Origin: an uncultured Puniceicoccaceae bacterium
Lineage (GTDB): Bacteria; Verrucomicrobiota; Verrucomicrobiia; Opitutales; Oceanipulchritudinaceae
Direction of reading: 5' to 3'
NCBI GenBank assembly: GCA_963933835.1
Contig: CAWVVV010000003.1
Span: 252,271-316,270 of the forward strand
Length of the DNA stretch: 64,000 nt
Shown here: positions 21,963-27,527 of the stretch, in pieces
Numbering within the stretch: position 1 is the stretch's first letter
Layout of the letters: each line of letters opens with the position of its first letter
Made by a program: the position numbers and the translations under genes
The notes under the pieces: generated by a model
Told to the model about the DNA's origin: nothing
Seen by the model: the letters and a program-made list of their open reading frames with translations, nothing else
Database searches by the model: none

Positions 21963-22321
21963 AGCACAACTAGAGCTAGAGCCATCACAAGCATCAGGGT
22001 GGCCGGAAGTGAGCGCTTGGCTGGATCTTTGATTTTCAAATGCATTCCAATCGCACCAAGCATCAAGATGACGAGCAAACCAGCTGCCGGCTGAACTACC
22101 GGTTGATACCAAATCCCTGCAATCAAAGCCAAAGCGATCGCCAACTTCAAAAAGCCAACGACCCACACCATTAAAGGCGGCAGCCCATAGGCCAAAAACT
22201 CATCCCGCATACAGGTCGAATCCCCTCCCCGATAGGCAGTCGATTTTTTGTAACGGAGCATCCAGACATTCAAGAGACCACCTGCCACGACGACTTGAAG
22301 AGCAATTTTTAAGTATTCCAT
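21959..22321 (-). CDS. DoxX-like membrane protein
   Basis: EFLAYGLP, VGFLKL, HLKIKDP..RSLPA; convergent with its paralog, stops overlapping. Confidence 0.85.
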   Translation of the reverse strand: MEYLKIALQVVVAGGLLNVWMLRYKKSTAYRGGDSTCMRDEFLAYGLPPLMVWVVGFLKLAIALALIAGIWYQPVVQPAAGLLVILMLGAIGMHLKIKDPAKRSLPATLMLVMALALVVL

Positions 22322-22486
22322 AAGCTTACTATCTCACACTATTCTAGTCACACCAACCAAAGACTGGAAATTTACCCGTCGACCGAGGCGAACAAAAGCC
22401 CCCTGCCCAGAAGGATACACTTAAGTGAGTGTCGGGCCGCTTTTGAAACAGAACTCAGGCAAATCCGGCAGCGCTCAGCGACCGAC

Positions 22487-22888
22487 CTACTTCGCTAGCT
22501 CTTCAAGAATCTCGTAGCGCTTAAGAATATCCTGCTCTGAACATTCGCAGAGATGCTCGGCCCTTTCGGGGTCTCGACGTTTGAGCATCTGGAAGCGCCC
22601 TTCGTTCGCCATAAACTCGGCGAGACTGATCTTTGGCCTCTTTGAATCCAAGCGGAGAAGCGGTTGTCCATTTTCCTTCTTACGCGGATCAAACCGGTAG
22701 AGGGGATGCACGCCCGCGTCGACGGCCGCCTTTTGGTGGAAAAGGCCATCATCCAACCCGAAACCATGCGAGACACAATGGGCATAAGCGATAATGAGCG
22801 AAGGGCCCTCATAACTGGCGGCCTCGTTAAAGGCCTGCACGGTCTGCGTATCCTTCGCGCCTAGCGCAACTTGAGCGACATAGATGTG
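22487..22888 (-). pseudogene. nifJ: C-terminal fragment of pyruvate:ferredoxin/flavodoxin oxidoreductase
   Basis: HIYVAQVALGAKDTQT..AFNEAASYEGPSLIIAYAHC..HG..YRFDP; preceded by an in-frame TAG and unrelated AT-rich DNA. Confidence 0.88.
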
Positions 22889-23213
22889 CTATTTTGCGCT
22901 TTATGACTTTTTTCCATACTGAGCCTATTTTGAATACCACTCGTTTAAACCAACTGCTTGCTACTATACATCAAACGCTATTGAAGGTATCCAAGCTGCA
23001 ACCCTTCAAGCAATTTCTAAATATTAGGAGGTTAGAGTATCAGCAGAACACAAATAGTCTGCTGTGAGCAGGCTTAAACTCGAGTAAGCTGAAGGAAATA
23101 CTATTCCTGCCGAATTCCTGTCAAAACAGGTGCATCGAAACGACTATCCCTTGCAACCCACTGCAAAGAATACCGGCATAAACACTATGCAAGCCACTAT
23201 TTATCAGGGGCCA

Positions 23214-23243
23214 ACGCGGTTTCGACTCCCGCCACCTCCACCA
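23214..23243 (+). repeat. Copy of the tmRNA 3' end (att site 2)
   Basis: ACGCGGTTTCGACTCCCGCCACCTCCACCA, 29/30 identical to 16723-16752. Confidence 0.93.
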
Positions 23244-23434
23244 CCTCAAACCATAAAATGCTGATTATTAGCATCTTATGGATCACATAGTGGCGAGTTA
23301 AAAACCCGCCACCTTTTTCTTGCAGGGGCAATTTTTCATTTTGTATTTAACTCTAAATCAAGGACTTAAAGCCTTATTTACACTTAAGGATATCTGATTC
23401 AACTCCAAGGGACTAAATCTTGGGCTTAATTATG

Positions 23435-23454
23435 GTGTCCCTATATATGTCCCA
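23435..23454 (+). repeat. Putative integrase arm-type site pair (left)
   Basis: GTGTCCCTATATATGTCCCA, 18/20 identical to 27904-27923; two TGTCCC units 12 bp apart. Confidence 0.65.
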
Positions 23455-23823
23455 TTTCGACAACGATTTGAAGGCATTACAATTCGTGCTTTCTGACTAG
23501 GAAACTAGGTAATTAAGTCAGATGATGAATTTGACTTAACGCGTTCAGAGGATTTATCCGGTAATCCACTACTAATTGATTACCAGAACTGCTTCGCTGC
23601 GCGGTATTCATGTTTTGGCGATGGACCGGGAGTTTATCGGAAAAGATTGGTTTCGGTGGCTCAATCGTAAGGCCATCGGCTACATTGCCCAAATCAAAAG
23701 CAATACGATCATCAGTAATCAACACGCAAGATAACAAAAAGTATAAAGTGTCTCATCGAATCGGCATGACACCTTTTACAGCACTGCATAGCTTAAATGC
23801 TTGACCGAGCACCTCCTCCTTAT

Positions 23824-23838
23824 TGAAAGTGACTTTCA
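23824..23838. promoter_or_regulatory. Fur-family (likely Zur) 7-1-7 operator
   Basis: Perfect palindrome TGAAAGT-G-ACTTTCA, 17 bp downstream of TTGACC (23801-23806), overlapping the ATG at 23838. Confidence 0.75.
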
Positions 23839-24221
23839 TGAAGAGAGGAAGAAAGACGAAGTATACAAGAACCGCATCACCTGCGCGGCGCTGGGCTTCG
23901 GCTTTAATGGTAGTGCTCTTGCTAACCTTGTCTTTCGCAAGCGTCAGCCCGATCTTACATGATTGGCTTAATGCGGGCAACTCCTGCGAATCGGTTTGCA
24001 GCAGCGAATCGCATGGTTCTACGGAGGACCAAACCGTCCACGTCTGCGCGGTAGAAATTTTTGGAATGGGCGCGGACTGTCCATCTTCGATAGAGATTCC
24101 ATCCGCAGCTTTGATCGAGGTCGCACAACTCTCGTCTTATTATAATTCAACTTGGGATGAGAAGAGTGTCCGCTCCCGCTGTGCACGTGCCCCACCGATT
24201 GAAAGTGTCGTTACCGCTTAG
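23838..24221 (+). CDS. DUF2946/CruR-like membrane leader protein with a C-terminal RAPP motif
   Basis: Basic N-terminus, TM segment, His/Cys cluster (LHDW, CESVC, HVCAV), RAPP at 24186-24197; 79 bp upstream of a TonB-dependent receptor. Confidence 0.78.
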   Translation: MKRGRKTKYTRTASPARRWASALMVVLLLTLSFASVSPILHDWLNAGNSCESVCSSESHGSTEDQTVHVCAVEIFGMGADCPSSIEIPSAALIEVAQLSSYYNSTWDEKSVRSRCARAPPIESVVTA

Positions 24222-24300
24222 TCTCTAAGCACTACACTCACCGTACCTATGCTGTGAGTGTTACTTCAACAACAACTTTCAACAACAACTTTCAATAACT

Positions 24301-26391
24301 ATGCACAGCTTTATAAAAAAAAGCGGCCTCTTTGCCTGCGCCGCTCTTCTCACGAATATCACCCAAGCAGATCAACTTGATTCCGATTATGTTTACGTAC
24401 TAGACGAATACATTATATCAGCGGGTCCCTTACCACGTCAGATTGAGGACTATTCCAATCCTTTCACCGCTCTCGATACTGATGCGATTCGCCAAGAGTC
24501 CGGCGGCACACTCGGCGAATTACTAGATGGGCAACCAGGTGTTACTTCAACCAGCTTTGGAGCTGGAGCCAGTCGCCCCATTATCCGTGGTTTCGATGCC
24601 GCTCGTGTCCGAATTCTGGAGTCGGGCCTAGGTTCACTCGATGTTTCTGAGACCAGCCCCGATCATGCAGTTTCCGTTGAGCCACTGCTCACGAAACGTA
24701 TTGAGATACTGCGTGGTCCTTCCACATTGCTTTACGGCAGCTCGGCCATCGGCGGCGTGGTCAATGTAGTTGGCCGCGAAATCCCACGTGTTCCGGTCGA
24801 TCCGAAAGGCTACGAAGGTGCCTTCGAGACACGCTATGACACCGTCTCCGAAGGAGAGACTTACCTCGGCTATGGCACAGTTGGCGGTGAGAATTGGGCC
24901 TTTGGAGTATCGGGACTAACTCGGAAAACTGAAAATTATGAAATCCCTGGAGAAGCCGAAGCTTTCCACGAAGAAGAAGCACATGAGGAAGACGACCACG
25001 AGGAGGAAGCATCCGGCGACACACTGGAGAACAGTTTCGTCGAAAATGATTTTATCTCAGTGGGCGGCACTTGGTTCTTCGGAGAACAAAGCTACCTCGG
25101 CGCATCTTTTTCATCCTATGACGCTTTTTACGGAGTGCCGGGACATGGGCACCACGAGGAGGAAGCGCATGATGACCATGAAGAGGAAGATCATCACGAA
25201 GAAGAAGAAGGCGTCGCTATCGATCTGGAACGAAAGCGTTTCGATCTGGAATTGGCGCTTTTTGAGCCGATCGATTGGATCGAAGCTGTTCGCATCCGTT
25301 TCGGCTACACCGACTACGAGCACCTTGAGAACGAAGGTGACGAGATGGGTACTGTTTTCCAACGTGACGGCTGGGAGTTTCGAGCCGAAGCCGCACACCA
25401 TGAATGGACATTTATCGACGAAGGAATCTTCGGGATCGATATTTCGGACACTCGTTTTGAAGCAATCGGGGAAGAGGGCGCTGCCTTCGGCCCACCAACT
25501 GAAACGCGCAATCAGGCATTTTTCATTAGTGAGCAGATTCACCAAGATAAAATGCACTACGAGTTCGGCGGCCGGCTGGAAGCCCAACAAATCGACGCAG
25601 AGGGCGGCTTATCTGATTATAGTGGACTCGCCCTTAGCTTGGCCGCTGGACTCATCTATGAAATCGATGAAAATAACTCTCTTGCGCTCTCCTTACAACG
25701 CTCGCAACGGAACCCAACCTCTTCTGAACTCTATGCCAACGGTGCCCACTTGGCTACCAGCCAGTTCGAAATTGGCGATGCAGACCTTGAGCTTGAAACT
25801 GCATATGGAGTCGATCTAAGCTATCGACACAGTAATTCAGTTTGGAATACCCGCCTCTCAGTCTTCTATACTTACTTCGAAGATTATATCTTCGCAGAGG
25901 CGACCGGTGCTGAAGAAGACGAACTAGCGGTCTTTGCATTTACTGCTTTAGATGCATCTTTCTATGGGCTCGAAGCTGAACTGGAATACCTGCTGATCGA
26001 CAGCAGTGATATCCAATTCAAAATTGGATTACTGGGCGATTTCGTGAAAACTGAAAACCACTCAGCGAAAGATGCACTTCCCCGAACACCTCCACTTCGT
26101 ATCGGAGGAAAGGTCCGTCTGATTCACGGCAACTGGGACACTGGAGTAATCTTACGTCACGCTTTTGAGCAGAACGACACCGCACCGCTTGAAACAGAAA
26201 CTGATGGATACACCGAACTCCAAGCGGACCTGTCATATACCTTCGACTTAAGCAATGACATGGATTTCACGCTATTTGTTCGTGCAGACAATCTATTAGA
26301 CGAAGAGATCCGCCCGCACACATCCTTCCTCAAAGATGATGTGCTGCTCTCTGGCCGTAATTTCACGCTAGGCGCTCGGTTGGAGTTCTAA
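24301..26391 (+). CDS. His/Glu-rich TonB-dependent receptor (ZnuD-like)
   Basis: Signal peptide, plug SRPIIRG..SPDHAV..EILRGPSTLLYGSSAIGGVVN, two HEEE tracts, DNLLDE..GRNF, terminal F. Confidence 0.93.
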   Translation: MHSFIKKSGLFACAALLTNITQADQLDSDYVYVLDEYIISAGPLPRQIEDYSNPFTALDTDAIRQESGGTLGELLDGQPGVTSTSFGAGASRPIIRGFDAARVRILESGLGSLDVSETSPDHAVSVEPLLTKRIEILRGPSTLLYGSSAIGGVVNVVGREIPRVPVDPKGYEGAFETRYDTVSEGETYLGYGTVGGENWAFGVSGLTRKTENYEIPGEAEAFHEEEAHEEDDHEEEASGDTLENSFVENDFISVGGTWFFGEQSYLGASFSSYDAFYGVPGHGHHEEEAHDDHEEEDHHEEEEGVAIDLERKRFDLELALFEPIDWIEAVRIRFGYTDYEHLENEGDEMGTVFQRDGWEFRAEAAHHEWTFIDEGIFGIDISDTRFEAIGEEGAAFGPPTETRNQAFFISEQIHQDKMHYEFGGRLEAQQIDAEGGLSDYSGLALSLAAGLIYEIDENNSLALSLQRSQRNPTSSELYANGAHLATSQFEIGDADLELETAYGVDLSYRHSNSVWNTRLSVFYTYFEDYIFAEATGAEEDELAVFAFTALDASFYGLEAELEYLLIDSSDIQFKIGLLGDFVKTENHSAKDALPRTPPLRIGGKVRLIHGNWDTGVILRHAFEQNDTAPLETETDGYTELQADLSYTFDLSNDMDFTLFVRADNLLDEEIRPHTSFLKDDVLLSGRNFTLGARLEF

Positions 26392-26424
26392 GTAGAGCGA
26401 GTCGCAAAAAAAATCTTCTTTAAG

Positions 26425-26460
26425 AGGAGTTCGCAAGAATGCTTGCGAACTCCTTTTTTT
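26425..26460 (+). terminator. Intrinsic terminator after the receptor
   Basis: 13-bp stem AGGAGTTCGCAAG / CTTGCGAACTCCT, 4-nt loop, T run. Confidence 0.88.
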
Positions 26461-26481
26461 CGGGTAAAATGAGCCGCTATA

Positions 26482-26919
26482 ATGCCCCTCAAAAAGACAG
26501 AGCTTTTAGAAGTTATCATAGATCGCCTAAAGTTAAGCGGCGGCCGCATGACGAAAAAGCGCGAGCGCATCCTCGGTGCTTTACTGACCTTTGATCACCC
26601 CGCTACTGCTGAAGAAATCCGCGAACGGGCAGAGTTACCCCCCTCGGACTTGGTGACAGTCTATCGAAATCTCGAAACCTTTGAATCGATCAACTCGCTC
26701 CAACGGATTCCGCTCGAAAACGGCACTCAGATTTTTGAGCTGACTGCACCTGGAGAGCACTACCACCATCTCATTTGCCGCGAGTGCCACAAAGCCGAAC
26801 GCTTGGACGTCTGCGTAGGCAAAGAATTGATCCACAATGCAAAAGCACGCGGCTACTCACAAATTTCCCATATCATGGAAGTCTACGGCGTCTGCGAAAG
26901 CTGCGAAAGCCCAGCCTAA
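26482..26919 (+). CDS. Fur-family regulator (probably Zur)
   Basis: RMTKKRERIL, TVYRNL, HYHHLICREC, YGVCESC. Confidence 0.93.
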   Translation: MPLKKTELLEVIIDRLKLSGGRMTKKRERILGALLTFDHPATAEEIRERAELPPSDLVTVYRNLETFESINSLQRIPLENGTQIFELTAPGEHYHHLICRECHKAERLDVCVGKELIHNAKARGYSQISHIMEVYGVCESCESPA

Positions 26920-27029
26920 ACGGCAAACCTTGACCTCGCATAATTCAAAGACTTTTACCCAAGAAGCTTAGACACTCCGATCGCTATACACACTTCTCGC
27001 CTCATTACTGAATAAGGGTGGGGTAAAAA

Positions 27030-27527
27030 TTAGTGTGAACATTGGCTCTTCCGGCAGAGGCGAAAGTTCCTTACATGAGCTCCCGCGAGGAAGAGGCCAC
27101 CGATAGTATTAATCCAGGCTCCCGCATTTAACGGTAGAGGCTCTTCAGAGAGATCACGCGAACAGCTTGAGCAGCTGTGCACACAAGTCGCTTCAACGCC
27201 ATCATGTGCTGCCGCATATTGACGCTCATGTATGAGCGCAAAAATCAGAAGACTCAAGCCGACAGCACTCAACGCTGCGACCCACTTATCTTTATGCTTA
27301 CGGCAGCCCATAAACATGGCGAAACCCGTCGTTGGCAGCACCAGTAGCAACATCCAAAGGTGGAAATCCTCATGCACGAAAAAGCTCGTGGCTACAATCG
27401 GGAGCAGCACCAACAAAACCGGCGTTAATAAACAATGTACCGCGCAGACTGTTGCCATCCCAATTGCAAGATGATCGAGCCAGCCATGTGTACGACAACT
27501 ATTTTGAGCGCTATTCATAGTATTCAC
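27030..27527 (-). CDS. MerC-domain membrane protein with a His/Cys-rich loop
   Basis: DHLAIG..VCAVHCL..P, RKHK, AHVRN..LC; insert HDG..CVHSCSSC. Confidence 0.88.
   Translation of the reverse strand: MNTMNSAQNSCRTHGWLDHLAIGMATVCAVHCLLTPVLLVLLPIVATSFFVHEDFHLWMLLLVLPTTGFAMFMGCRKHKDKWVAALSAVGLSLLIFALIHERQYAAAHDGVEATCVHSCSSCSRDLSEEPLPLNAGAWINTIGGLFLAGAHVRNFRLCRKSQCSH

Follow-up and report, generated by a model that had tools for sequence, protein, structure and literature searches.

The closest described systems to the locus studied here are small genes that end in a ribosome arrest motif and control the gene that follows. In SecM-SecA, MifM-YidC2 and ApdA/ApdP, arrest at a C-terminal motif (RAG/P or RAPP) of an exported or membrane protein rearranges the mRNA and exposes the next start (PMC10951233, PMC7897499, PMC10987492). 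The peptides report on the Sec/YidC components under their own control, whose pulling force ends the arrest. In CruR (Bp2923)-BfrG of Bordetella pertussis, as set out in the parts of PMC9426467 drawn on here, a copper-responsive DUF2946 upstream open reading frame precedes a TonB-dependent transporter and is coupled to it via Rho termination; the signal peptide of CruR is dispensable, and the 45-residue spacing between Cys and RAPP matters. In CutF-CutO of Rhodobacter capsulatus, the sections used of PMC9973294 and bioRxiv 10.1101/2025.02.05.636593 describe a stem-loop between the two genes, which hides the start signal of the second gene until a stalled ribosome opens it. Small open reading frames with RAPP or RGPP upstream of TonB-dependent receptors have also been surveyed (PMC12992588, main text). 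For RAPP-ending small genes in front of such receptors, the record thus comprises one experimental case, CruR with its Rho read-out, and one survey.

The locus described here lies in the window, by which we mean the whole stretch of 64,000 nucleotides that was analysed, from an uncultured Puniceicoccaceae bacterium. By the main text of PMC12992588 it is an instance of the surveyed class, with a small secretory protein, the motif near its C-terminus and a TonB-dependent receptor downstream; that text differs from the present account in using none of the terms 'secondary structure', 'stem-loop' or 'zinc'. The likeness to CruR extends to a small first gene with a putative export signal, a C-terminal RAPP that follows a Cys motif at a distance of about 45 residues and comes just a few residues ahead of the stop, then a long spacer and a TonB-dependent transporter, with C exceeding G in the gene end and spacer, and to a weak sequence kinship through the PF11162 matches of relatives. 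Unlike CruR, the window leader has no PF11162 match, carries one invariant Cys in place of the CXXC, and precedes a ZnuD-like receptor that is not of the copper type; furthermore, Results parts 2-3 and the Discussion of PMC9426467 describe no start-masking helix anchored at the stall site.

With CutF, as portrayed in the cited parts of those two sources, the locus shares a DUF2946-like, putatively exported leader with a Cys motif (a CxxxC is likewise present in the window leader) and a proline-rich end at which stalling is expected, together with the principle of shielding a start signal. There, however, a multicopper oxidase is induced by copper, the metal enhances stalling, and the stem-loop shields a Shine-Dalgarno sequence. 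At the locus described here the receptor start has no Shine-Dalgarno sequence, the helix is long-range with its 5' arm within the last leader codons, and what follows is the gene of an uptake receptor, which metal should repress. The likeness to SecM and MifM is that the start region is held in a helix whose other strand sits at the arrest site, although the downstream gene is a TonB-dependent receptor and not a Sec/YidC component. Since the regulated gene encodes an outer-membrane receptor, the feedback signal must differ from Sec/YidC pulling and is presumably metal. Among the papers listed by our literature search, none connected ZnuD with a leader or arrest peptide, an upstream open reading frame or Verrucomicrobia. 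As argued below, a translational switch operated by ribosome arrest is the most likely reading of the locus and, in our judgement, a probable one.

The leader peptide and its relatives

The first gene of the locus encodes a small protein whose basic N-terminus leads into a hydrophobic segment, a putative export signal or anchor; it also carries His/Cys motifs and has the C-terminal end ...SRCARAPPIESVVTA-stop. The hydrophobic stretch, visible in the translation and the alignment after the basic N-terminus, is 18 residues long. The features of the gene are as follows.

23838..24221, + strand: leader gene, 127 aa from ATG 23838 or 132 aa from TTG 23823 (open reading frame list, homologues)
23892..23945, + strand: hydrophobic segment WASALMVVLLLTLSFASV, a putative signal peptide or membrane anchor, then conserved SP-x-LH-x-W (translation, alignment)
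24039..24053, + strand: H-V-C-A-V with the family's invariant Cys, 46 residues before the Arg of RAPP (alignment)
24186-24197, + strand: RAPP codons CGT GCC CCA CCG (read from the sequence)

The leader family was found in 57 of 301 genomes of the order Opitutales, and a profile search returned 666 cluster representatives at E<=1e-3. In the leader alignment P38 is nearly invariant, while H41 and C70 are invariant. All 32 Opitutales loci end in R[AGDS]PP plus 2-7 residues (20 RAPP, 7 RGPP, 3 RDPP and 2 RSPP), with RAPP plus seven residues in the window, and R-x-P-P recurs in 145 of the 149 top profile hits. The distance from the invariant Cys to the Arg of the motif is similarly constrained. It is 45-47 residues in 27 of 29 loci (46 in the window) and 49 in two, and it spans 44-49 in all 145 motif-bearing hits among the top 149, the commonest values being 46, 47 and 45.

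The window leader has no match in Pfam (E<=0.1) or NCBIfam, and a six-frame search of the genome with PF11162 (DUF2946) at E<=1 gave nothing at the leader locus. Weak, sub-threshold PF11162 matches were obtained for 7 of 29 relatives (best E 0.016), and 2 of 36 sampled profile hits pass the cut-off of that model. At the site equivalent to the CruR CXXC there is a single invariant Cys, in the context H-x-C in 18 of 29 sequences. A separate C-x(2-4)-C lies 17-23 residues upstream of this Cys in 11 of 29 relatives, a twelfth match (locus L003) falling inside the hydrophobic segment; the corresponding CxxxC of the window leader (CESVC) is placed 20 residues before it. The leader is classed as a distant, Pfam-invisible relative of CruR/CutF (DUF2946).

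The receptor and its start region

Two genes follow the leader on the same strand.

24301..26391, + strand: TonB-dependent receptor, ZnuD-like, with His/Glu-rich loops, ATG 24301 (Pfam Plug, TonB_dep_Rec_b-barrel)
26482..26919, + strand: Fur-family regulator gene, directly 3' of the receptor (Pfam FUR, E 5e-18)

The best NCBIfam model for the receptor is ZnuD, which matches over the full length with 451.6 bits, below the 950-bit cut-off of the model. The Fur, PerR and Zur models of NCBIfam all match the regulator below cut-off. All 32 leader homologues precede a long open frame resembling the window receptor. The spacer between leader and receptor is 79 nt in the window and 49-217 nt over the 32 loci, where the start codons of relatives were chosen by eye and are ambiguous in L005, L007, L010, L017, L026, L029 and L035.

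The last 25 nt before the receptor ATG contain no G. The earlier note on this DNA had seen no Shine-Dalgarno sequence there, which is correct and also true of the genome as a whole, in which Shine-Dalgarno motifs are not enriched (0.12 vs 0.12). Initiation should therefore depend on an open start region. A search for the 16S 3' tail gave two matches with surroundings that are not rRNA-like, and did not yield the anti-Shine-Dalgarno sequence. C exceeds G in the window from about 24100 to 24460, with G at 9-17% in 24240-24340, and the same excess is found in the spacers of 30 of 31 loci but not in the leader coding region. A rho gene is present in the genome. Within 22000-27000, Rfam 15 gave no match at E<=1 except a 15-bit tmRNA fragment elsewhere; a promoter and terminator scan of 23000-24500 found no promoter-like site on the + strand and no terminator-like site in the spacer; and ARAGORN reported no tRNA or tmRNA in 22800-23900.

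A long-range helix between the arrest motif and the receptor start

The mRNA around the spacer folds into a multi-branch structure that joins the codons around RAPP to the start of the receptor gene. Its elements are listed in order along the strand, together with a second copy of an arm sequence further upstream.

23820..23830, + strand: TTATTGAAAGT, repeating the arm sequence shortly before the leader ATG (inverted-repeat search)
24178..24185, + strand: 5' strand of an outer helix, GCTGTGCA, the codons directly before RAPP; partner 24302-24309 (inverted-repeat search 8/8, minimum free energy fold)
24198..24212, + strand: 5' arm of the long-range helix, core ATTGAAAGT 24198-24206, extended by 24207-24208 and 24210-24212 (fold, inverted-repeat search)
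24216..24230, + strand: inner hairpin 1, GCTTAG-TCT-CTAAGC (24216-24221/24225-24230), holding the leader stop TAG 24219-24221 (sequence, fold)
24234..24261, + strand: inner hairpin 2, ACACTCAC/GTGAGTGT (24234-24241/24254-24261), plus three more inner pairs (fold, inverted-repeat search)
24281..24296, + strand: 3' arm of the long-range helix, core ACTTTCAAT 24288-24296, ending 4 nt 5' of the receptor ATG 24301 (fold, inverted-repeat search)

The two cores, ATTGAAAGT and ACTTTCAAT, are complementary at 9 of 9 positions. Sequence, inverted-repeat search and TRF reproduce every position that the earlier note had given for the arms, the hairpins and the repeat discussed below. The minimum free energy structure of 24180-24320 computed by RNAfold is exactly the multi-branch fold described, at -34.1 kcal/mol, so the long-range helix is favoured as the note had proposed. 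Shuffled sequences average -20.7 kcal/mol (z -4.10), and none of 200 is equally stable. Beyond the earlier description, the minimum free energy structure contains an outer helix, GCTGTGCA 24178-24185 with TGCACAGC 24302-24309, a perfect 8 bp whose 3' strand consists of the TG of the receptor start codon and codons 2-3. A shorter, 4-bp form of this helix is common to the window and locus L011.

Repeated sequence elements occur at and around the arms. The 8-mer TTGAAAGT has 6 copies in the window vs 2.2 expected, a number reached in 3 of 100 shuffles, and 4 of the 6 copies fall within the leader-receptor locus. The 11-mer TTATTGAAAGT at 23820-23830 is complementary at 11 of 11 positions to 24288-24298 and has a local alternative partner, ACTTTCA at 23832-23838. 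It also precedes the leader ATG in L040, and a partner of this type near the leader start was not top-ranked in the other loci scanned.

A polymorphic 13-nt repeat

The 3' arm lies within a tandem duplication.

24265..24299, + strand: tandem duplication, 13-nt unit CAACAACAACTTT twice; 2.7 copies, 95% matches (TRF)

The inverted-repeat search places an alternative 8-bp partner of the 5' arm at 24275-24282, in the first repeat copy, and in that sense the second pairing register proposed in the earlier note exists. Ensemble folding of 24150-24340 gives repeat copy 2 as the main partner of the 5' arm (mean probability 0.82, as against 0.09 for copy 1), and forcing the copy-1 register costs 1.6 kcal/mol. 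The duplication was not found in L011, L040 or the other relatives examined. It is a strain polymorphism: contigs from runs X3 and X5 carry both copies of the unit, and those from runs X4 and X6 (one study) are short by exactly 13 nt at this point and otherwise identical. Because of the repeat structure, the single-copy allele is deduced to keep the 3' arm and its 4-nt distance to the ATG. The further proposal of the note, that the duplication tunes or leaks the switch, is doubtful given the low probability of the second register, the relatives without a duplication and the polymorphism.

Recurrence of the helix in Opitutales

The long-range helix recurs in relatives of the window with compensatory changes, as indicated by a duplex test and by a model-fitted alignment; the lack of conservation that the earlier note had named as refuting its reading was not observed. 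In the duplex test, 21 nt at the end of the Pro-Pro codons were paired with 33 nt at the receptor start, and either arm was shuffled. Of the 32 loci, 15 have a natural duplex better than the shuffles at p<=0.01, a number that rises to 18 when the limit is p<=0.05. Measured from the end of the Pro-Pro codons, the 5' arm of the 18 significant loci starts at -1 to +2 nt; between the 3' arm and the receptor start there are 0-6 nt (11 nt in L005). The arms occupy these positions with sequences that vary between loci, such as GACUGUAAGUGUU/AACACUUACAGUC, UUUAUCCUGAU/AUCAGGAUAAA and GAUGAAAAG/CUUUUCAUC; those of L032 are GACGGU..UGUUGU/ACAACU..ACCGUC with an internal loop between. When the stall-site arm was free to choose its best partner anywhere in the spacer, the partner ended 0-6 nt before the start in 18 of 31 loci. 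Conversely, when the pre-start segment was matched against the entire leader gene, its best pairing fell no more than 2 nt from the Pro-Pro end in 12 of 29 loci.

A covariance model built from two sequences (R1) recovered only 6 true loci, 2 of them its own seed, plus one match on the reverse strand. The model built from its output (R2) recovered 12 true loci, all in the expected places, including 6 that were not part of the seed. On the alignment fitted to R2, which includes 2 reverse-strand rows and consists of related rows, the long-range helix has 9 pairs, 7 of them changed on both sides, with 95.2% of cells paired. None of 500 shuffles reaches the observed score on this model-fitted alignment, and partners slid out of register are 28-42% paired vs 86%. 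MAFFT alignments of 16 and of 3 spacers placed the 3' arms in different columns and were not used for a consensus fold. The inner hairpins are also maintained. Two pairs of hairpin 1 are changed on both sides between the window and L011, and a hairpin of other sequence occupies the place of hairpin 2 in L011 and L040. The further loci L040, L041, L042, L047, L050 and L039, of the type collected by a search with the receptor protein, agree with this picture.

The start-proximal helix is not significant in 14 of the 32 loci (L003, L007, L013, L019, L020, L022, L025, L026, L028, L029, L030, L031, L034 and L035). One family among these, L019, L022, L026 and L029, has its best duplex starting at or within 3 nt of the Pro-Pro end, though of the four just L022 and L026 reach p<=0.05; here 21-47 nt separate the 3' arm from the chosen start downstream, and a second hairpin comes after the arm. 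L013 and similar loci, which have no start-masking helix, have an open, C/A-rich spacer. With the whole spacer as target the test loses power, and only 8 of 31 loci reached p<=0.01. Equally good pairing is frequent among decoy windows taken from coding sequence, and only 6 of 32 loci beat all 60 decoys.

Modelled opening of the start region by an arrested ribosome

Applying the RAPP arrest geometry published in PMC10951233 to the CCA and CCG codons of the window predicts that the arrested ribosome has CCA 24192-24194 in its P site and CCG 24195-24197 in its A site. By this geometry the 5' arm begins immediately 3' of the A-site codon, in the part of the mRNA that the arrested ribosome encloses in its channel. 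When a 29-nt stall footprint was held unpaired in the folding model, the unpaired probability of the start region in the window rose from 0.35 to 0.85. The footprint increases modelled accessibility of the start by at least 0.2 in 15 of 31 loci, whereas an equal control footprint in the middle of the spacer does so in 0 of 31. Within the L019/L022/L026/L029 family the modelled gain appears in L022 only. The central suggestion of the earlier note, that a stalled ribosome would cover the 5' arm and free the initiation region, is thus supported at the level of modelling by the footprint folding run, along with thermodynamic and comparative evidence.

Under the translational switch that we consider probable, the leader would belong to the His/Cys peptides of the wider CruR/CutF (DUF2946-like) group, be exported or anchored in the membrane, and end in the arrest motif RAPP. 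In the free mRNA, the outer helix 24178-24185/24302-24309 and the inner helix 24198-24212/24281-24296 would clamp the receptor start, which has no Shine-Dalgarno sequence, and enclose the two hairpins. The RAPP codons lie between the 5' strands of the two helices, so both strands would be covered by a ribosome that has arrested with CCA 24192 in its P site, and the start region would become single-stranded and open to initiation. Once the arrest was released, seven more codons would be read, termination would occur at TAG 24219 and the clamp would re-form. The output of receptor should accordingly follow the dwell time at RAPP. We infer that RAPP causes arrest in the window leader and that the nascent His/Cys motif releases it on binding metal, most likely zinc; the invariant Cys, 46 residues from the Arg, would then be just out of the exit tunnel. 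If metal binding releases the arrest, the receptor would be made when metal is scarce. In the OFF state, the untranslated, C-rich and G-poor receptor mRNA would presumably also be exposed to Rho.

A role of Rho as the main coupling, as in CruR-BfrG, has to be weighed against this switch. The arrested ribosome would shield a C-rich site in the leader end and spacer, release would lead to Rho termination before the receptor, and the helix would be an accessory pause or spacing element. CruR, which has the same gene order, motif and Cys-to-RAPP spacing, acts in this way according to the parts of PMC9426467 cited here. Furthermore, the C excess at about 24100-24460 and in 30 of 31 spacers, unlike the leader coding region, the presence of rho, and the open, C/A-rich spacers of helix-less loci such as L013 all suit this explanation. 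It gives no account, however, of the closeness of the 3' arm to the start (0-6 nt in 18 of 31 loci) or of the pairing of the start codon itself in the window, and G-poor, A-rich regions before the start are equally needed for initiation without a Shine-Dalgarno sequence. We therefore regard Rho as the main coupling as unlikely, though still a serious contender; Rho termination and start-masking are compatible and may act jointly.

The structure might instead be a conserved element unrelated to stalling, serving mRNA stabilisation, as a processing site or in spacer protection, with an incidental overlap of the stall site. Spacers are structured in all loci, the inner hairpins are maintained by compensatory changes, and one family has a stall-site helix without start masking, yet incidental overlap would hardly place the 5' arm within 2 nt of the Pro-Pro end in 18 significant loci, make the stall-site arm the top partner across the whole leader gene in 12 of 29 loci, or keep the register despite sequence change. 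This makes such an element quite improbable. We give still less credence to re-initiation, in which the helix would join the leader stop to the receptor start so that completion of the leader, not stalling, turns the receptor on. The multi-branch loop does bring TAG 24219 near ATG 24301 in space, but from the geometry part of the 5' arm would still lie under a terminating ribosome, which makes the bridging helix impossible at that moment, the modelled terminating state keeps the start codon paired by the outer helix, and the conserved arrest motif would be left without a role. Chance complementarity in an A/T/C-rich spacer is hardly credible. The core is only 9 bp, the window arm is of low complexity, and six copies of TTGAAAGT are not beyond shuffled sequence (3 of 100); against this stand the z of -4.1 and the recurrence of the helix with different sequences at the same two anchor points, and both the duplex shuffle test and the model-fitted alignment contradict it.

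Implications for metal uptake

With the present analysis the leader family takes in proteins that Pfam does not detect and is connected to a receptor of the zinc type. Comparison between loci suggests a SecM/CutF-like unmasking of a start without a Shine-Dalgarno sequence across a whole order of marine Verrucomicrobiota. Taken jointly, the observations admit a broader reading, which we put forward tentatively and with more doubt than conviction. The leader may be the first arrest peptide that senses zinc, and not copper or secretion activity, gating the translation of a ZnuD-type receptor on the mRNA in bacteria without Shine-Dalgarno sequences. Its family would read out one and the same stall through two or more RNA designs: most lineages would use a start-masking helix, others a stall-site helix with a second hairpin or an open, C-rich spacer (Rho). 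If the switch itself is confirmed, outer-membrane metal uptake would be tuned co-translationally, on top of any control by a Zur/Fur repressor.

Leader gene and gene neighborhood

The leader gene, whose product ends in the RAPP arrest motif, precedes a ZnuD-like receptor gene in the following arrangement.

23838-24221, + strand: leader gene, from ATG 23838 (more likely) or TTG 23823 to TAG 24219-24221; product ends ...SRCARAPPIESVVTA
24301 (ATG), + strand: TonB-dependent receptor gene, 696 residues, 79 nt past the leader
26482-27527, 3' of the receptor gene: Fur-family gene (Fur, PerR or Zur type), MerC-like membrane protein gene on the other strand

The Fur-family regulator, the MerC-like protein, and the receptor with its His/Glu-rich loops make up a small metal-handling cluster. 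The best NCBIfam match of the receptor is the ZnuD model, which aligns over the full length at 451.6 bits and does not reach its cut-off of 950 bits, while a copper-receptor NCBIfam model scores 52 bits.

About 100-600 nt 5' of the leader lie a tmRNA-like fragment of 37 nt (23207-23243; Rfam 15.1 bits, E 0.0043, far under the gathering score), at which ARAGORN found no gene, and an open frame of 52 residues (23576-23731) that weakly matches a DDE transposase (E 0.0013, 19 bits). Both resemble insertion remnants, and an insertion may have displaced the original upstream region of the locus. The public gene call P0001 (203 aa, 23610-24221) runs from an ATG in the transposase-remnant ORF (23610-23804) into the leader, and shows one residue where the window carries a stop; its first 71 N-terminal residues probably do not belong to the leader protein.

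A conserved leader family at the edge of DUF2946

A word-index search for the leader returned a single relative, with 41% identity and the end CARAPPIESVV. A wider six-frame search of whole genomes, using an alignment of five leaders as query, found matches in 57 of 301 sampled genomes of the order and in 31 of 121 genera. All 32 loci examined carry R-x-P-P at the protein end, with 2-7 residues between the motif and the stop, in the variants RAPP (20), RGPP (7), RDPP (3; loci L025, L028, L031) and RSPP (2; L026, L029), the last two with Asp or Ser in place of Ala/Gly. All 32 also have a long open frame 49-217 nt past the leader (starts chosen by eye), which was judged to be like the window's receptor on its N-terminus; the three frames examined in full have Plug-like starts, with His-rich loops in two (L002, L005). 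Named receptor relatives come from the Opitutales of the Verrucomicrobiota (Coraliomargaritaceae, Puniceicoccaceae, Thalassobacterium maritimum).

The invariant residues of the family are a His (in SP-x-LH), a Cys (mostly in H-x-C-A-V), and the R, P and P of the motif. Between Cys and Arg the spacing is 45-47 residues in all but two of the 29 loci, where it is 49. A 29-member profile run against 1.84 billion proteins retrieved 666 cluster representatives at E<=1e-3, of which 183 reach E<=1e-10. Among the 149 best hits, the window's own excluded, 145 have R-x-P-P in the last 12 residues, with a Cys spacing of mostly 46; RDPP and RSPP occur five times each among the 149 top hits. Judged by this conservation, the leader is a real gene.

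Neither Pfam nor NCBIfam recognizes the window's leader, and a six-frame search of the genome with PF11162 (DUF2946) gave no match at the locus. Seven of 29 relatives match PF11162 weakly (best E 0.016), and among 36 hits sampled from the 149, two pass the gathering score and three more give a match below it. Because of these weak matches and the two passing hits, the leader family is best described as a remote branch on the margin of DUF2946. Studies exist on two proteins of this wider kind. In Bordetella pertussis, CruR is encoded 5' of a TonB-dependent transporter gene, and its CXXC lies 45 residues from RAPP, a spacing that is described as important (PMC9426467); CutF of Rhodobacter capsulatus is described with a CxxxC, a proline-rich end, and an intergenic stem-loop that hides the start signal of the next gene until a stalled ribosome opens it (PMC9973294). 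A survey reports that RAPP/RGPP small ORFs are enriched 5' of TonB-dependent receptor genes in Gram-negative bacteria, and its main text does not contain the terms 'secondary structure', 'stem-loop' or 'zinc' (PMC12992588).

Predicted RNA structure between the stall site and the receptor start

The earlier note had proposed, from the sequence alone, a multi-branch RNA joining the stall site to the receptor start, and the minimum-energy structure computed by RNAfold for 24180-24320 is exactly this one. The two 9-nt arms (24198-24206 and 24288-24296), the two perfect hairpins they enclose (24216-24230 and 24234-24261), the 13-nt tandem unit and the alternative 8-nt partner at 24275-24282 are all found where they had been placed. 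The predicted energy is -34.1 kcal/mol, compared with -20.7 on average for shuffles (z -4.1), and none of 200 shuffles folds as well. The fold also holds a perfect 8-bp outer helix, absent from the earlier proposal, in which 24178-24185 pairs with 24302-24309, so that the codons directly 5' of RAPP are joined to the TG of the receptor start codon and the next two codons. With this helix added to the long-range one, the initiation region is, in the predicted fold, doubly clamped, by helices that have their 5' strands on either side of the RAPP codons.

A second copy of the stall-site arm, TTATTGAAAGT (23820-23843 region), stands directly 5' of the leader ATG. It is complementary at 11 of 11 positions to the receptor pre-start segment 24288-24298, and has ACTTTCA, which overlaps the leader's own start, as an alternative local partner. 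The identical 11-mer precedes the leader ATG in L040, a locus whose receptor is 59% identical. Through this copy, translation of the leader may be controlled at a second point.

Only the window's genome has two copies of the 13-nt unit; a CAACAACA...TTTCAAT-like segment occurs just once in each of the loci L011, L040, L009 and L010. In contigs from one study (sequencing runs X4 and X6), exactly 13 nt are missing at 24265 and the sequence otherwise matches the window over 23800-24674 and 24216-24720; contigs of runs X3 and X5 have the unit twice. Since the runs differ by exactly 13 nt and are otherwise identical, the duplication (24265-24299) is, on this comparison, a recent strain-level polymorphism. 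The repeat structure implies that the 3' arm would stay intact, 4 nt from the ATG, in either allele. The alternative register takes an ensemble share of 0.09 at a cost of 1.6 kcal/mol; tuning of the switch by the duplication is unproven, and any effect would be small.

Conservation and covariation of the long-range helix

Each locus was folded from 12 nt 5' of the Arg codon to 30 nt beyond the receptor start, which was chosen by eye in the relatives. Roughly half of the minimum-energy folds again have a long-range helix that encloses one or more hairpins and links the nucleotides directly 3' of the Pro-Pro codons to those just 5' of the start. In a duplex test of 21 nt around the Pro-Pro end against 33 nt ending at the start codon, with 500 shuffles of either arm, 15 of 32 loci passed at p<=0.01 and 18 at p<=0.05, and 14 failed. 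In each of the 18 passing loci, the first base of the 5' arm falls at -1 to +2 relative to the Pro-Pro end, and 0-6 nt (11 in L005) separate the 3' arm from the start. The arm sequences themselves differ widely between loci (GACUGUAAGUGUU/AACACUUACAGUC in L008, UUUAUCCUGAU/AUCAGGAUAAA in L015, GAUGAAAAG/CUUUUCAUC in L016, UGUUGAACCGU/AUGGUUCAACA in L005, and in L032 GACGGU..UGUUGU with ACAACU..ACCGUC, interrupted by an internal loop), which means that the two strands have changed in concert; as the 5' arm belongs to the coding sequence, its variation carries over to the residues that follow RAPP.

When the stall-site arm was free to pair anywhere in the spacer, its best partner in 18 of 31 loci was one ending 0-6 nt 5' of the start; when the pre-start segment was offered the whole leader gene, 12 of 29 loci had the best partner <=2 nt from the Pro-Pro end. 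Tested over the full spacer, p<=0.01 was reached in 8 of 31 loci only, and coding-region decoys often pair equally well. In a separate decoy comparison, only 6 of 32 loci outdid all 60 decoys.

RNAalifold on the window and L011 keeps the entire multi-branch, with four inner-hairpin pairs changed on both sides. A covariance model of the structure recovered 12 true loci at the expected coordinates, six of them outside the seed (E 8e-7 to 6e-4). In its alignment, which was fitted to the model and includes two reverse-strand rows and related sequences, seven of the nine pairs of the long-range helix have changes on both sides and 95.2% of cells are paired; none of 500 shuffles reaches the observed covariation, and slid partners are 28-42% paired versus 86%. 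The helix of the window thus recurs in relatives with covariation, as the earlier note had left to be checked. Loci fetched via the receptor protein agree (L040, L041, L042, L047, L050, L039), as does L044 if its start is read, by eye, 12 nt further on (p 0.47 in the duplex test with the uncorrected start).

A Kordiimonas sp. MAG (L049:1-1100) carries two consecutive small ORFs, both with RAPP at the end (…SARAPPPYI and …GAIRAPPRSVTPF), 5' of a receptor with 37% identity. Past the second of these ORFs, CUGUAACCC pairs with GGGUUACAG, which overlaps an AGGA before an AUG; this suggests that the wiring extends to an alphaproteobacterium using Shine-Dalgarno sites.

In the sister family L019, L022, L026 and L029, the best-scoring duplex (GAUUCAGG/CCUGAAUC, CUUUUCAGGU/ACCUGAAAAG, AUCGUAAGGU/ACCUUACGA) begins at or <=3 nt from the Pro-Pro end, its 3' arm ends 21-47 nt before the chosen start, and a second hairpin of the form CAGG...CCUG lies between duplex and start. 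The shuffle test was passed at p<=0.05 in L022 and L026 only. This arrangement hints at a different read-out of the stall. In L025, L028 and L031, a short UUUGG just 5' of the Arg codon finds its partner, CCAAA, near the start, and the folds of L013, L003, L034 and L035 contain no comparable structure.

Proposed switch and a possible role of Rho

A ribosome protects roughly 12-15 nt on each side of the P-site codon. Arrest would put CCA 24192-24194 in the P site, and because of this reach the arrested ribosome would enclose both 5' strands, 24178-24185 and 24198-24206. With the footprint modeled as unpaired, the mean unpaired probability at -15..+6 of the start rises from 0.35 to 0.85 in the window, in line with the earlier suggestion that a stalled ribosome frees the initiation region. 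Across loci, the stall footprint raises start accessibility by >=0.2 in 15 of 31 (mean 0.46 to 0.63), compared with 0 of 31 for a control footprint of equal size in mid-spacer.

The last 25 nt 5' of the receptor starts average 8% G. In the window's genome (G000), GGAG/GAGG/AGGA/GGGG are not enriched at -18..-4 of 1070 long ORFs (0.12 vs 0.12 in a control window), and G is not raised 5' of the crudely called starts; this genome appears to initiate without Shine-Dalgarno pairing. Because of this lack of enrichment and the low G content, initiation should depend on an open, A-rich start region, which would make structural masking an effective control. The receptor would be made while ribosomes dwell at RAPP, and metal bound by the nascent His/Cys motif would release the arrest, the invariant Cys being just out of the exit tunnel since it lies 46 residues from the Arg. 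By analogy with CruR, the receptor would be ON at metal scarcity. As for the sensed metal, zinc is suggested by the ZnuD-like receptor and the Fur-family gene next to it; copper would also suit Cys-rich motifs.

The same stall could be read by Rho. Arrested CruR is described as blocking Rho-dependent termination in the spacer, with copper lifting the arrest, and an excess of C over G is the signature used to find its terminator (PMC9426467). In the window, C outnumbers G between about 24100 and 24460, and G makes up 9-17% near 24240-24340; 30 of 31 loci have a C>G spacer, a bias that the leader coding region does not share, and the genome has a rho gene. Termination by Rho leaves it unexplained why the 3' arm sits at the start codon. 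Rho may strengthen the OFF state, or serve as the main read-out in those clades that have no start-masking helix.

A RAPP leader before a TonB-dependent receptor and a stall that opens a start-masking structure are both already in print, for different systems. What is new here is a Pfam-invisible Opitutales branch of leaders tied to a ZnuD-like receptor, comparative evidence for a covarying long-range helix that would wire the stall site directly to a start without a Shine-Dalgarno site in this branch, and signs that sister clades may read the same stall differently.
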